In this document: piece by piece, positions 4,001 to 50,855 of the stretch
How the letters are laid out: the number at the start of each line of letters is the position of its first letter
How positions within the stretch are numbered: position 1 is the stretch's first letter
From: Eledone cirrhosa
Taxonomy: Eukaryota
DNA: 64,000 bases
NCBI GenBank assembly: GCA_964016885.1
Contig: OZ024743.1
Span: 9,672,001 to 9,736,000 of the forward strand
Direction of reading: 5' to 3'
Translations under genes and position numbers: made by a program
The notes under the pieces: generated by a model
Database searches by the model: none
The model's input: the letters and a program-made list of their open reading frames with translations, nothing else
Told to the model about the DNA's origin: nothing

Positions 4001-4127
4001 TCTCTCTCTTTCTCTCTCTCTCTCTCTCTCTCTCTCTCTCTCTCTCTCTCTCTCTCTCTCTCTCTATATATATATATATATATATATATATATATATATA
4101 TATATATATATATATATATATATATAT
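4001..4127. repeat. (TC)n(TA)n microsatellite
   Basis: Directly visible. Confidence 0.97.
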
Positions 4128-4398
4128 AATATAAGATCAAAAGATGGTTAAAGGAGTTCCATGTATTTTATTATGCGCATTTCAAAAACAAACATCATCA
4201 TGCAATAATATTTGTGTTTTCATCAGATAAAACAGGAGAACATGATATGAAGGCTAAAAAACACTTGTGGATAGTGCAGTTTTAAATCAACATCTTTTGA
4301 TCTTATATTATGTATACTCCAGTCCTACAAACTGTAGAGTGCTTCTTATCCGATATCTGCATTGCTTTATTGTACTACAATAAAACTCACCTCCTACA
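4126..4398. mobile_element. Short non-coding Penelope-like fold-back insertion in (TA)n
   Basis: Inverted repeat ataatataagatcaaaagatg (~4126) / catcttttgatcttatattat (~4291-4311), hammerhead on the minus strand, ~90-bp unpaired extension, and (TA)n on both sides. Confidence 0.7.
4165..4233 (-). ncRNA. Type I hammerhead ribozyme, intact core
   Basis: Minus strand: gttttat-CTGATGA-aaacacaaatattatt..tgatgatgtttgttttt-GAAA-tgcgca-TA-ataaaat. Stem I pairs, and the palindromic minimal stem III is typical of PLE hammerheads. Confidence 0.88.
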
Positions 4399-4529
4399 TA
4401 TATATATATATATATATATATATATATATATATATATATATATATATATATATATATATATATATATATATATAGAATAAGATAAATATATGTATATATA
4501 TAGATAAATATGATAAATACGCGGAAATA

Positions 4530-5690
4530 AAAACAACTATAAACCCCCATTTTCCTGCAGCAAATTGCATCTGCACAGAGGCTTTGAACAGAAGCCCCCT
4601 CACTTCACCAGATAACAAACCTTTATATGGACAAATTGACAATCATATTAACCACATATACCCTCATTTCCATGCAGCTTCCTTCTTCGTATATGTTTAC
4701 ATATGTATCTCCTATTTTGCATCTATGTATTTTATGTATTTTTTGTATTTTTTGTGTATGTTATATTTTGCATTTTTTTGTTTGTTTTGTTCCATGTGAT
4801 AGAGATATTAACTATGTATTCGCCTAACTACTACATTTCATACTGTAATTTACCCTCCGTTCTACTGTACGATACTATCGTTCAATATGTAGATAATATA
4901 TCTGTAACATTGATCCCACTTTCAAAACTTCTTACTATAACTTAAACATCTCCCTATTTATTAGTTATTATATGTACATATATTTTTTACTTACTTCAAT
5001 CTAGATTCTAACTTGAACATTTTTTTTAATTTTTGACTTTTGATTTTTAATTTTTAGTGTTAATTTCCAACTCTCATTCATAATTTCTACTGTGAAACCA
5101 TAATACCTAGAAATAAGTATATATTCTCTTAGCGGTTGATGGTCAATTCTACGGTCCATGCTTATTTGGGGTAGTATTGAGGCCTATTGACACTCATACT
5201 CTCCCACCCCACTAGTTTTCGGCCGGCTGCCACTAACAGGGTGGCTAGCATTAAGCTATAACCGTGTCATATTACAGGCCTGGATGGGGGTCATTGTTTC
5301 GTTGAGCGGGGACCTGCCTAGGCGAGTTTCGTAGAACTCTGCGGTAGTTGATGATCAACTTCCTTCGGACTTGCGCCTGCGCAGACCGGTGAAGTGAATT
5401 GAGACTCACAAGGGAACAGGCGAAGAACTCAAGAGCACATGTCGATTCAATTTGGATTGCCTCAGAAACATAACCTTATTATGTAACAAGCTGTCTGATG
5501 ATGTCATGGAACTGGGCGCACCAACCTGTGTGGCCACTGTTGTCATTGAAATATATATCACAGCATTATTATTAAAGGACTTTAACATCTGAAACTACTT
5601 CGCTTTTTCTTATTCGATATATAATCCGTCACTCCTGTGTGGAAAAAGTACGTTGAGTGCTTGAAATGAATTGCATCAATATTTATCTTA
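4530..5690 (+). mobile_element. Probable Penelope-like 3' region/pLTR
   Basis: Lies between (TA)n tracts and contains a minimal hammerhead plus the ACTC..GAGTGCT motif. No recognisable ORF; the 5' boundary is uncertain. Confidence 0.5.
5490..5564 (+). ncRNA. Type I hammerhead ribozyme
   Basis: gctgt-CTGATGA-(imperfect long stem II)-GAAA-tatata-TC-acagc. Predicted cleavage after ATC at 5559. Confidence 0.8.
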
Positions 5691-5717
5691 AGTATATATA
5701 TATATATATATATAAAT

Positions 5718-5777
5718 ATACACGGGTGTGTATGATTGTGTATAGAAGATTGTATTAATAAAAGGAATTCCAACTTA
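5718..5777 (+). repeat. ~60-bp dispersed repeat; inverted copy at 10641-10700
   Basis: tacacgggtgtgtatgattgtgtatagaagattgtattaataaaaggaattccaactt is the reverse complement of 10641-10700. Confidence 0.85.
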
Positions 5778-5973
5778 TATATATACATATATATATATAT
5801 ATATATATATATATATATATATATATATATACATCTATGCAGAGGTTATATTTAATTTGTTGGGATTCAACAAGCTTAAACATTTTTTATAACTGAAATA
5901 AAGCACTCAACAGTTAGTGGAGTAAATATACAATATATTAACAAATGGAAATTATATTTATAAAACCTTTTTT

Positions 5974-6037
5974 ATTTTATTATACATATTTCAAGGGCCA
6001 CCAATGCAAATTATGGTGCGCTTTCATCAAATAAAAT
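5974..6037 (-). ncRNA. Hammerhead ribozyme, core mutated (TTGATGA)
   Basis: Minus strand: attttat-TTGATGA-aagcgcacc..ggtggccctt-GAAA-tatgta-TA-ataaaat. Confidence 0.7.
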
Positions 6038-6180
6038 ACAATACAGAATTAGTTTTATAAATAAATATTGACATATCCTGGAAAAATCTAATATCTCCAC
6101 TATCCAGGAAGCTCCAACCGTTAAGGTTGTCTTTTTTCAGGGTATGTCAATATTTATTTATAAAACTAATTCTGTATTGT

Positions 6181-6244
6181 ATTCTATCTAATGAAAGCGC
6201 ACCATAATTTGCCTTGGTGGCCCTTGAAATATGTATAATAACAT
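6181..6244 (+). ncRNA. Hammerhead ribozyme, core mutated (CTAATGA)
   Basis: attctat-CTAATGA-aagcgcacc..ggtggccctt-GAAA-tatgta-TA-ataacat. Confidence 0.65.
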
Positions 6245-6317
6245 AAATATGGTTTTATAAATATAGTTTCCATTTGTATATTGTATATACATATACATTT
6301 GTATGTTGTATATACAT

Positions 6318-48403: not shown

Positions 48404-48898
48404 CATTCGAACCCGTAACTACAACACCACTTTCTAGCTAACAACCTTCTCTTCTCCCCCACACTACAAGACAATACACTGCTTATCACTATACATGGTA
48501 ACTCAGTACAATTCCTAGATTACTACTACAAAACCAAAAGTTCACTCACCACATATACTTTATCTGTCCCCTCTCTACCTATATATCTCTCTCTACATCC
48601 ATTACACACTCTCTCTCTCTCACCTTTGACCTACCTCCCTCTCAACATCTATGAACCTGACCTCTGGGGCAATAAATAATTCCGACCTCAACTATCTACG
48701 CATCTCTCCAAAAGTAACTAATAAAACCCCTACCATAACATTTTGATTAAGATATCTACAAGCCACTCTCTCCTACTTCTCCAACCCCTGCATATCTTTC
48801 CTTCTCTCTCCTTCTTCCCTACTTTTCTCTCTTCCTGTTCCACTCTATCTTCCCCAACAACCCCACTTAAGGGTTTTTACATTGTATATTTACCATTC

Positions 48899-49010
48899 TG
48901 CTCTGAGGAAACAGTGGTCACAGCATTGGATATTCGAGTTCTGCAAATACTTGTGAATTTGCACGTAGCGGAACTAGGCTGCAGTACCACCGTAGAAACA
49001 CTTGTAAGCA
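48899..49010 (+). ncRNA. Type I hammerhead ribozyme with long stem II
   Basis: tgct-CTGAGGA-aacagtggtcacagc...gctgcagtaccaccgta-GAAA-cacttg-TA-agca. Predicted cleavage after GTA at 49006. Confidence 0.72.
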
Positions 49011-49377
49011 CACGGAATAAACTACCTTTTTATGATGTCTACCTGTTATTATTCATTCTTTATATACACTCCGGAATACTGAAGGATCAGGAACTAAGTT
49101 TCTTGAACAATTCTTCCATAACTCGTAGAGTAACCTCTTACCGTACGTCAACCATATCCAGTGTAGTAATTAACCATCACTACATCTTGGATAATCCTAT
49201 ACCTAATATATATATATATATATATATATATATATATATATATGCATAAGTTATATTTAATTTGTTGGGATTCCAACAAATTTAAACGTTTATAACTGAT
49301 ATAAAGCACTCGACAGATTACTGGAGTAAGTATTCAGTATATTAATAAATGGAAACTATATTTATAAAACCATAATT

Positions 49378-49440
49378 ATTTTATTATATATATTTTAAGG
49401 GCAACCAAGGCAGTCTTGGTGCGCTTTCATCAGATAAAAT
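49378..49440 (-). ncRNA. Hammerhead ribozyme (GAAA mutated to AAAA)
   Basis: Minus strand: attttat-CTGATGA-aagcgcaccaag..cttggttgccctt-AAAA-tatata-TA-ataaaat. Confidence 0.7.
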
Positions 49441-49540
49441 ACAAAATTTGTTTTTATAAATATTGACATAACCGTGGACAACAACCTCGACGGTTGGTTG
49501 TTTTCCACAGTTATGACAATATTTATAAAACAAATTGTGT

Positions 49541-49601
49541 ATTTTATCTGAAGAAAGCGCACCAAGACTGCCTTGGTTGCCCTTGAAATATATAACAAAA
49601 T
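49541..49601 (+). ncRNA. Hammerhead ribozyme (2-nt deletion in stem III)
   Basis: attttat-CTGAAGA-aagcgcaccaag..cttggttgccctt-GAAA-tata-TA-acaaaat. Confidence 0.7.
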
Positions 49602-50497
49602 AATTATGGTTTCATAAATATAGTTTCCATTTATTAATATACTGTATATATATATATATATATATATATATATAGATACCTAATATATGTAAGTTACCTA
49701 ATGGAGGTAGGTCCTAATAAAATAAAATCTAAGTATATTCTCTTCAATTATTAAGTGATCTAATACAGACAATGAGGCCTGAATTTATCTATCTCTAGTC
49801 TCACTCTATCTTAACCTGTTTGCAAACCTGCTGATACTTTCCATGATTTATTTCAGATAAAGTAATTGTTGATATCTTACTAAATTATGGATACGAAACA
49901 TCTAAATTGCTAGATGTCTATTAAAAGCTATAGTTCTCCAGATGGATACCTTTTCCGTAAAAGTGTTATCATGATTGAAATTTGACAATTTAGTGAAAAC
50001 TAATTTCCTTCACTCCCGTATTAATTAGGCTTGTGATTAGTCAGCCATAATTAAACATGTGAAAACATGCACACACACAACCATTCACACACACATTCAC
50101 GCACCACATGCACACACGTGCGCCCACGGACACACATAAACACACATATGACACACACACACATATTTATATATGAGTTAATTTCAATTTCTTACAGCCA
50201 TTACTGTTAAGGTTTATTGAGATCTAATTAAGGTTTATTGCGGTCAAGTTCTGAAGGTTAAGCCAATCTTAAGCTCAATATATCATTGTCTTTAATTGTA
50301 AACATGCCTTTTCCTTGTGTTGTGTCTATGCGCGGAGTTATTTCTAATGCCACCCCCACATATAAATTTACAAAGTTTTGAAGTTTTCCAATACTAGAAA
50401 CTGACATTAGAAATCGTCTGTCTAATCGCATATACAATTACTTTGACAATCTTCCTGCTTTCTTTCTGTATATATATATATATATATATATATATAT

Positions 50498-50685
50498 AAA
50501 GGTAGAACACTGGAAGGTAATATCCGTAGTGGTAGAGCACTCAGTCCATGAAACGAGTTTGGTAGAAGTAGTAACACAACAGTTAGTTCACCATACCGAA
50601 AATAATTGTTTCACCGAGCTGAAGATCCGCAAGGTGAAACAATTGTTCTCGGTATGGTCAACTAACTGTTGTGTTACTACTTCTA
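50498..50685. mobile_element. ~190-bp fold-back PLE-like mini-element
   Basis: Arms 50563-50615 and 50633-50685, a left extension, and (TA)n flanks. Confidence 0.8.
50613..50653 (+). ncRNA. Minimal type I hammerhead ribozyme, intact core
   Basis: accgag-CTGAAGA-tcc gcaa ggt-GAAA-caattg-TT-ctcggt. Confidence 0.88.
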
Positions 50686-50727
50686 TATATATATATATAT
50701 ATATATATATATATATATATATATATA

Positions 50728-50855
50728 TAAAGAATGAATAATAACAGGTAGACATCATAAAAAGGTAATTTATTCCGTGTGCTTACAAGTGTTTCCACGG
50801 TGGTACTGCAGTAATTAACCATTACTACTACATCTTGGATAATCCTATACCTAAA
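50728..50855. mobile_element. Ends-only derivative of the 46733-49207 PLE family
   Basis: Matches 46733-46815 joined to 49167-49207 at tgcag/tgtag. Confidence 0.85.

Follow-up and report, generated by a model that had tools for sequence, protein, structure and literature searches.

The sequence analyzed here, called the window below, is a stretch of 64,000 nucleotides (nt) from Eledone cirrhosa (GenBank assembly GCA_964016885.1, contig OZ024743.1, forward-strand positions 9,672,001 to 9,736,000), and all coordinates are counted from its first nucleotide. The original prediction held that eight insertions of Penelope-like elements (PLEs) in this window share one plan, in which one copy ends with a 3' extension (the tail), an oppositely oriented copy stops just before that extension, and both outer ends are element 3' ends. 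By self-comparison and inspection, all eight were found at the predicted positions: family A at 4129-4397, family B at 7482-10417 with a mini copy at 36832-36919, family C at 46733-49205 with a mini copy at 50730-50854, family D at 5834-6288 and 49244-49644, and family E at 50499-50685. Counted from the point where the inverted arm stops, the tails are 86 nt in A, 88 in B, 139 in C, 91-92 in D and 64 in E, in agreement with the expected 65-140 bp, and both outer ends are 3' ends, because the sense strand is fixed by open reading frames (ORFs) in B and C and by hammerhead ribozymes, whose core was recognized by eye in D. We consider it rather probable that these insertions are Hydra-type or related hammerhead PLEs in which reverse transcription starts at two places on the element RNA, one for each nicked strand of a (TA)n target, at positions likely set by two bulged hairpins.

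Family B consists of a tailed arm on the minus strand (7482-9600), which includes an ORF fragment for a Hydra-type reverse transcriptase (RT) C-terminus and GIY-YIG endonuclease (approximately 9600-8500), a 3' untranslated region (UTR), a variant hammerhead (7639-7599), a hairpin (7567-7519) and the 88-nt tail, and of a tail-less arm on the plus strand (9601-10417), which is 98-99.2% identical to the left arm and ends at TA repeats. In family C, the tail-less arm (46733-48141, minus strand) has a Hydra-type GIY-YIG ORF fragment at 48141-47391 and a hammerhead at 46891-46788, and is separated by a 13-nt filler (48142-48154), a templated re-copy of 48122-48134, from the tailed arm (48155-49205, plus strand), which equals the left arm in 910 of 912 nt and has a hammerhead at 48903-49006, the short terminus at 49066, a long-loop hairpin at 49068-49134 and the 139-nt tail. 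The tail-less arm of A (4129-4290, minus strand) ends at the (TA)n tract 4065-4128 and has a hammerhead core at 4226-4220 with a predicted cut after 4172, and its tailed arm (4291-4397, plus strand) has 18-21 nt in common with the other arm, followed by the 86-nt tail with a hairpin at 4316-4343. Copy 1 of family D has its tail on the minus strand (5834-5925, hairpin 5923-5902) and a plus-strand tail-less arm with a degenerate hammerhead core at 6188 and GAAA at 6226, ending at 6288; in copy 2, the minus-strand tail occupies 49244-49334 (hairpin 49327-49305) and the plus-strand tail-less arm ends at 49644. Family E combines a 64-nt minus-strand tail and a plus-strand tail-less arm with a minimal hammerhead (50619-50647).

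Of the tail, the two mini copies retain no more than the distal 71 or 46 nt, and they can be read solely against the large copies: in the B mini, these 71 nt (minus strand) are joined to the last 17-20 nt of the tail-less end (plus strand), and the C mini joins approximately 83 nt from the tail-less end (minus strand) to the last 46 nt of the tail (plus strand) with a 2-nt overlap. The arms of the minis do not otherwise overlap, which corrects the prediction for these two copies. Two further insertions that keep the plan, and tentatively a third, had been missed. Insertion X (4475-5692, plus strand) has a hammerhead at 5495-5559, a hairpin at 5631-5661 and a tail reaching (TA)n, and its 7-nt inverted arm (4475-4481) matches 5609-5615, the sole match within 4500-5692; insertion G (53311-53569) has an extension of about 100 nt and short inverted arms; and a tentative family F has a tail-less arm at 5715-5776 (minus strand), an inverted copy of 10641-10710, and a (TA)n-bounded tailed arm at 10468-10776 (plus strand) with an extension of approximately 66-74 nt. 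A short end was paired with a long end in all eight listed insertions and in X and G, and scans of the window found no TA-bounded element whose ends were both tailed or both tail-less. PLE families were seen stacked, two to four per cluster, within the same (TA)n tracts at 5693-10800, 46641-49674 and 50469-50924.

The outer ends adjoin (TA)n as had been expected, except that the (TAA)n at 7482 probably does not belong to the plan; any target-site duplication would be masked by the (TA)n. A nested 3' fragment of a long interspersed nuclear element (LINE; 6428-7460, plus strand), with a weak zf-RVT match (E 0.004) and a (TAA)n tail, is flanked on both sides by the same 15-mer (6365-6379 and 7482-7496). 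Judging from these sequences, the (TAA)n probably represents the 3' tail of this LINE fragment, which would have inserted at the end of B, and, since the 15-mer is duplicated around that fragment, B likely adjoined (TA)n 6322-6366 originally.

Metagenome contigs were scanned with an alignment of five relatives; 347 stretches were confirmed, and 79 loci were retained from these. For longer homologues of family C, a word-based search yielded 786 candidates and no homologue among them, and an exhaustive search gave 4663 at E up to 0.001; none of 221 pattern matches in viral contigs encoded a relative. The minus-strand ORF fragments of B and C match a profile of 16 long relatives with E values of 5e-108 and 1e-63, covering profile positions 358-696 and 494-703 of 707, respectively. 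Pfam GIY-YIG was matched by C with E 0.00035, below the curated cut-off, and was not matched by B. The CxCX5C linker, CxxC and the CxH near the end are invariant alignment columns, both window fragments included, and the 16 long relatives carry RW[KR] (8/16), DK[TS] (14/16) and Y[RK]DD (16/16); the window copies are 5'-truncated. On the order of a GIY-YIG domain after the RT and on these Cys/His motifs, B and C are identified as carrying putative ORF fragments of Hydra-clade PLEs, and the Hydra proteins named in the PMC8557442 supplement look similar by eye.

A motif scan found type I hammerhead cores and stems near the 3' end in A, C, the second copy of D, E and X, and the first copy of D is degenerate. 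In A, B, C, E and X, the predicted cut precedes the short terminus by 29-60 nt. In family B, all three copies long enough to include the ribozyme (7639-7599, 10349-10390 and about 12180-12215) have the same U-to-A change in the hammerhead core, and stems I-III are intact. No coding match was found in A, D, E or X, which are tied to PLEs by the hammerhead and hairpin variant only; F and G, in which no hammerhead or hairpin was called, have the plan alone in common and so are not counted as members of the endonuclease-containing (EN+) PLEs. Rfam searched over the window gave no hammerhead, only microsatellite-driven microRNA matches, and no tandem hammerhead units, a trait of non-LTR retrozymes (LTR, long terminal repeat), were found among these insertions. 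The view that the five families are unrelated holds insofar as BLAST gave no alignment between them, but B and C are both Hydra-type, and A to E share the ribozyme and the hairpin.

In the relatives, a motif of the form GCTC-loop-GAGCACT is present in two copies between the ribozyme and the ATG, both in the 5' UTR and near the ATG. Sixty loci had an ORF start, and among the 48 of these with at least 140 nt upstream, two hairpins were found in 31, one in 12 and none in 5. As controls, 504 ORF windows yielded a single hairpin in 19 cases and two in none, and reversed UTRs gave one double call in 60. The spacing from hairpin 1 to hairpin 2 is 53-82 nt (32 loci), as compared with tails of 64-139 nt in the window. 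A MAFFT alignment of the hairpins did not reach the quality needed for a covariance model, and base pairs were therefore tallied relative to the motif anchors. Among 48 hairpins selected from these loci, the first upper-stem pair, which lies above a 2-nt bulge, is of the Watson-Crick type 44 times (28 C-G and 16 T-A), a contrast that runs mainly between hairpin 1 and hairpin 2; the second is Watson-Crick in 31 of 48 with four pair types, and the third in 24 of 48. Shuffles, which ignore relatedness, matched the first, second and third pairs in 0, 0 and 2 of 5000 trials. Only a bulge of 2 nt fits (30/48, vs. 1-2 for other sizes).

The published Hydra consensus sequences in the supplement of PMC8557442, inspected by eye, have the motif at the same places. 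The start of the Hydra-1_Ajap consensus lies 2 nt ahead of hairpin 1 and both hairpins are present in it, Hydra-2_Amil and Hydra-2_Ajap end about 22-24 nt past hairpin 1, Hydra-1_Crog has a variant lower stem, and Hydra-1_Obim has two 5' strands and no canonical 3' strand. Rfam returned nothing for the hairpin at eight loci, and the twin hairpin was found neither in Rfam nor in the literature, in a search that covered the running text of openly accessible papers; a related structure may be drawn in Fig. S2 of PMC11167929.

In the window, a descriptor with G-C or A-U at the stem base matched eight times in the 64 kb, as compared with 1.0 expected from 15 shuffles. Six matches lie at the tail starts of A, B, C, both copies of D and X, at 4, 2, 1, 2, 7 and 15 nt past the short terminus, respectively; the other two lie just past a PLE-type end at 2312 and, unlinked, at 2863. 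Family E has a variant with a one-nt bulge 4 nt into the tail, recognized by eye. At the short end, the TA run in common with the target measures 3 nt in A, 4 in B, 6 in C, 5 and 0 in the two copies of D and 2 in E.

The places at which 3' ends fall were examined in the relatives and in raw reads. Among 13 relatives with a ribozyme after the ORF and a nearby (TA) tract, the tract starts either 32-45 nt (8) or 93-129 nt (5) after the cut. The 73 loci with an ORF end comprised 35 without a reference, 9 with tandem read-through, 7 at a contig end, 4 that were too short and 18 with a terminus; one of the latter (L075) was dropped, its reference being from another family, which left 17 valid termini. 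Fifteen of these lie 0-6 nt before a hairpin, six at the first and nine at the second (five of the nine were assigned by distance to the ATG), and L055 and L050 represent one family with both end classes. Under a rough chance level of 14 in 160 positions, p for this proximity is about 1e-14, or 1e-10 once loci judged by eye to be of one family are merged. A TA run of at least 3 is present at the terminus in 10 of the 17 relatives, compared with a background of 5%.

Four of 11 listed read runs were placed on 47640-49204 of family C, and the tailed end lies beyond that stretch. At 49066, 142 raw reads of run X9 pass from the element into sequence with a (TA)n consensus, as do 12 contigs of run X4. 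Since depth is about 400 just before 49066 and about 260 just after it, both end classes are common in family C. This sharp read end and the two end classes in the relatives speak for two fixed end positions. The inversion point of C is private to this copy, because the intact ORF runs on past 48141 in three contig sets; the two arms of C have nearly all of their differences from the family majority in common. Other pile-ups of X9 were rejected as element ends, being library cuts at AATT sites, of which six are present in the window copy and one was created by a variant in other copies, and an opposite-strand joint of 47640 and 48155 was rejected as support for the inversion, being merely the intact ORF continuing.

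Several boundaries of other kinds were observed. Three full-length relatives (L055:986, L005:965 and L075:3010) have a 5' boundary beside (TA)n just before hairpin 1 or 2, which may represent complementary DNA (cDNA) stopping at bound RT or an effect of the assembly path. At L004:703-904, an inverted tailed arm abutting (TA)n lies on the 5' side of a full-length Hydra relative and ends 8 nt before hairpin 2. Other 5' boundaries lie at the edge of hammerhead stem I (50613, L064:1426 and L068:2280). Both D copies have an identical short hairpin (5-bp stem and 5-nt loop) at the inversion centre (6117-6131 and 49481-49495), a possible preferred stop or fold-back point.

On the element RNA, the order would be the ORF, the hammerhead, a short UA run, hairpin 1, a spacer, a second short UA run, hairpin 2 and the next ATG. 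Tail-less ends fall just before hairpin 1 and tailed ends just before hairpin 2, and since the ends adjoin one or the other hairpin, tail length matches hairpin spacing. In the mechanism that we propose, each hairpin would be bound by one RT-endonuclease molecule, and the 3' end of the nicked (TA)n would pair with the UA run beside it. Both cDNAs would then extend toward the 5' end of the element, halt at variable points and be joined head to head by end-joining with overlaps of 0-3 nt or short templated filler, which are known signatures of such joining. The size of an insertion would be set solely by the distance that each cDNA ran (7 nt to 2.1 kb). Overlapping arms require two RNAs, a tandem RNA or one RNA that is re-used. 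That a single insertion uses one site per strand, as had been suggested, is the favoured reading, the alternative being that the second priming occurs on DNA and not on RNA.

Several points weigh against the proposal of two hairpin-set starts. Pairing of a short with a long end was observed within this window only, and two arrangements in it depart from the plan: a 5'-truncated copy of B (12057-13214, minus strand) is tailed without an inverted arm, and 2284-2383 and 3237-3265 form a same-orientation pair. The A-U form of the window descriptor was added after the window tails had been seen, and the strict form matches only B and 2319; the hairpin of C requires a 55-nt loop, that of X lies 15 nt off the short terminus, and F and G lack it. 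Folding energies of whole tails are unremarkable except in the second copy of D (z -3.9). Hairpin 2 is not visible in the window families because no copy extends beyond the tail, as is expected if the tailed end stops just before hairpin 2. The relatives are short-read contigs and possibly mosaics, some belong to the same families, and the termini of L068 and L078 are 12 and 65 nt off. Finally, the strands of PAc, the Anolis Poseidon element studied in vitro, were described without a difference in start site and without target homology (PMC11167929).

Two of these places show additional features. Just outside the 12057 copy, at 11829-11996, several short copies of the last 10-16 nt of B are interleaved with (TA)n, which could be due to abortive repeated priming at the tailed end or to slippage. 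The pair at 2284-2383 and 3237-3265 shares a 29-nt match, after which one copy ends at (TA)n and the other meets a Hydra-type hairpin 6 nt later, with SINE-like repeats (SINE, short interspersed nuclear element) between the two.

The rival that survives best, although we regard it as unlikely, supposes that one RNA is primed at the tailed end and that its cDNA folds back; the other target strand anneals to a TA run within the newly made sense DNA, and the copy of the tail is trimmed off, so that the short end is a microhomology join between DNAs. Near-perfect palindromic centres in D and G agree with this, as do the short-end TA runs of 3, 4, 6, 5, 0 and 2 nt, and self-priming has been proposed for palindromic junctions in PMC3846280. 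Arms are also closer within a copy than between copies (93.5-95% vs. 86.7-90.6% in D, and 99.2% vs. 89.9% in B). However, in A, C, E and both minis, i.e., five of the eight insertions, each arm has sequence missing from the other, including element sequence in the tail-less arm that the tailed arm lacks, and therefore a single folded-back cDNA is excluded for these five unless the centre was later deleted. Across families, the distance between the short end and hairpin 1 is fixed; a TA run of the same length at 48580-48586, where read depth is similar, is absent from the stronger loose ends listed; and two RNA start sites were found in vitro (PMC11167929).

Less likely still is a version in which there are two primings, but the hairpins serve as a promoter or in translation or assembly of the ribonucleoprotein (RNP), the starts are picked independently by UA-run pairing, and the small forms are later palindrome deletions. 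The location of both motifs in the 5' UTR near the ATG would suit such functions, the 2-nt overlap in the C mini would suit a deletion, and microhomology-mediated deletions are known in Penelope copies (PMC3846280). Independent priming predicts some same-type pairs, however, and none was seen in the window; moreover, the ends stay 0-6 nt from both hairpins despite a spacing that ranges over 53-82 nt. A third rival, in which the short elements have no relation to the long ones and are DNA transposons of the MITE type (miniature inverted-repeat transposable elements) bounded by terminal inverted repeats, is very improbable and largely refuted: D, E and G do resemble hairpin MITEs in TA sites, but the inverted repeats are not at both termini, one arm being always 64-139 nt longer, the hammerhead folds and Hydra hairpin lie at the expected places, and the minis match ORF-bearing copies. 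Equally improbable are assembly or library fold-back artefacts: no listed read or contig bridges the family C junction, and other copies continue in the intact ORF at 48141, but the arms differ (2/912 in C, about 2% in B and 5-6.5% in D), junctions have filler, the ends lie at conserved motifs, and the same plan has been published from other genomes.

The architecture and most of the two-start mechanism are already known, and our addition is the duplicated hairpin beside both end classes. In L1 twin priming, both target strands prime on the RNA to give an inversion, the second site being variable and internal and the cDNAs being without overlap, whereas here both sites are fixed and the arms overlap by up to 912 nt. 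The closest system is the Hydra clade of C-terminal EN+ PLEs (Craig et al., 2021, PMC8557442), for which a family from Octopus bimaculoides is listed and which has the same C-terminal GIY-YIG with CxCX5C linker, CxxC and CxH, the same hammerhead in pseudo-LTRs (pLTRs), (TA)n target, 5' truncation and inverted copy, and a tail on one end only, of 30-40 nt as compared with 64-139 nt here. That paper names the formation of inverted copies and tails of PLEs as open and attributes the tail to resolution by the endonuclease; its consensus file shows the twin hairpin, and the words "hairpin" and "stem-loop" are absent from its main text.

In Adineta vaga Penelope (Arkhipova et al., 2013, PMC3846280), the head-to-head pLTRs, one-sided tail and junction palindromes are the same; the tail there is 31 nt and lies inside the ORF start, and self-priming on an antisense template is proposed. 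Anolis Poseidon PAc (Frangieh et al., 2024, PMC11167929) was found in vitro to have the same two internal RT starts bounding the tail, both target strands being cut and extended on an AT-rich target, and a dimer is predicted. Its starts lie within the ORF with one AC-rich stem-loop and no target homology, and the text of the study leaves inverted insertions unaddressed and unexplained, whereas the starts here are in the 5' UTR, one before each repeated hairpin and mostly after a TA run that could pair with the target. The idea that the tails encode the ORF start as in Poseidon gained no support, since no N-terminal profile match was found and the relatives have their ATG about 150-180 nt downstream of the ribozyme cut. 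Cervera and de la Pena (2014, PMC4209133) described opposite-strand pairs of minimal hammerheads in Schistosoma, in small PLE fragments that lie head to head at distances of 100-700 bp, and no analysis of tails or ends was found in the available text of that paper.

Elsewhere in the window, three related long LINE copies (APE-RT-zfRVT) lie within 17658-35206; two of them are 95% alike, and 25638-29108 is an open frame of 1156 codons. A dispersed SINE-like repeat of about 200 nt is present at 1760-1900, 2470-2863, 17383-17600 and 35623-35803, and we take it to resemble octopus tRNA-derived SINEs, in line with the cephalopod host.

As a tentative extension of the two-start proposal, we suggest that priming is symmetric, in that tandem RT-loading hairpins recruit a dimeric RT-endonuclease, one subunit per hairpin and strand, with telomerase-like alignment at the UA runs, so that an inverted copy with a tail would be the normal product of a single RNP. 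If this is true, the length of the tail reads out the spacing of the hairpins. A duplicated, covarying cis element at both ends would provide a concrete and directly testable cause for the inverted copies and tails, and would show that a telomerase-related RT can be positioned by RNA structure beside a short target-pairing stretch. For annotation, it would give the rule that thousands of small TA-flanked palindromes are debris of Penelope elements and not MITEs.

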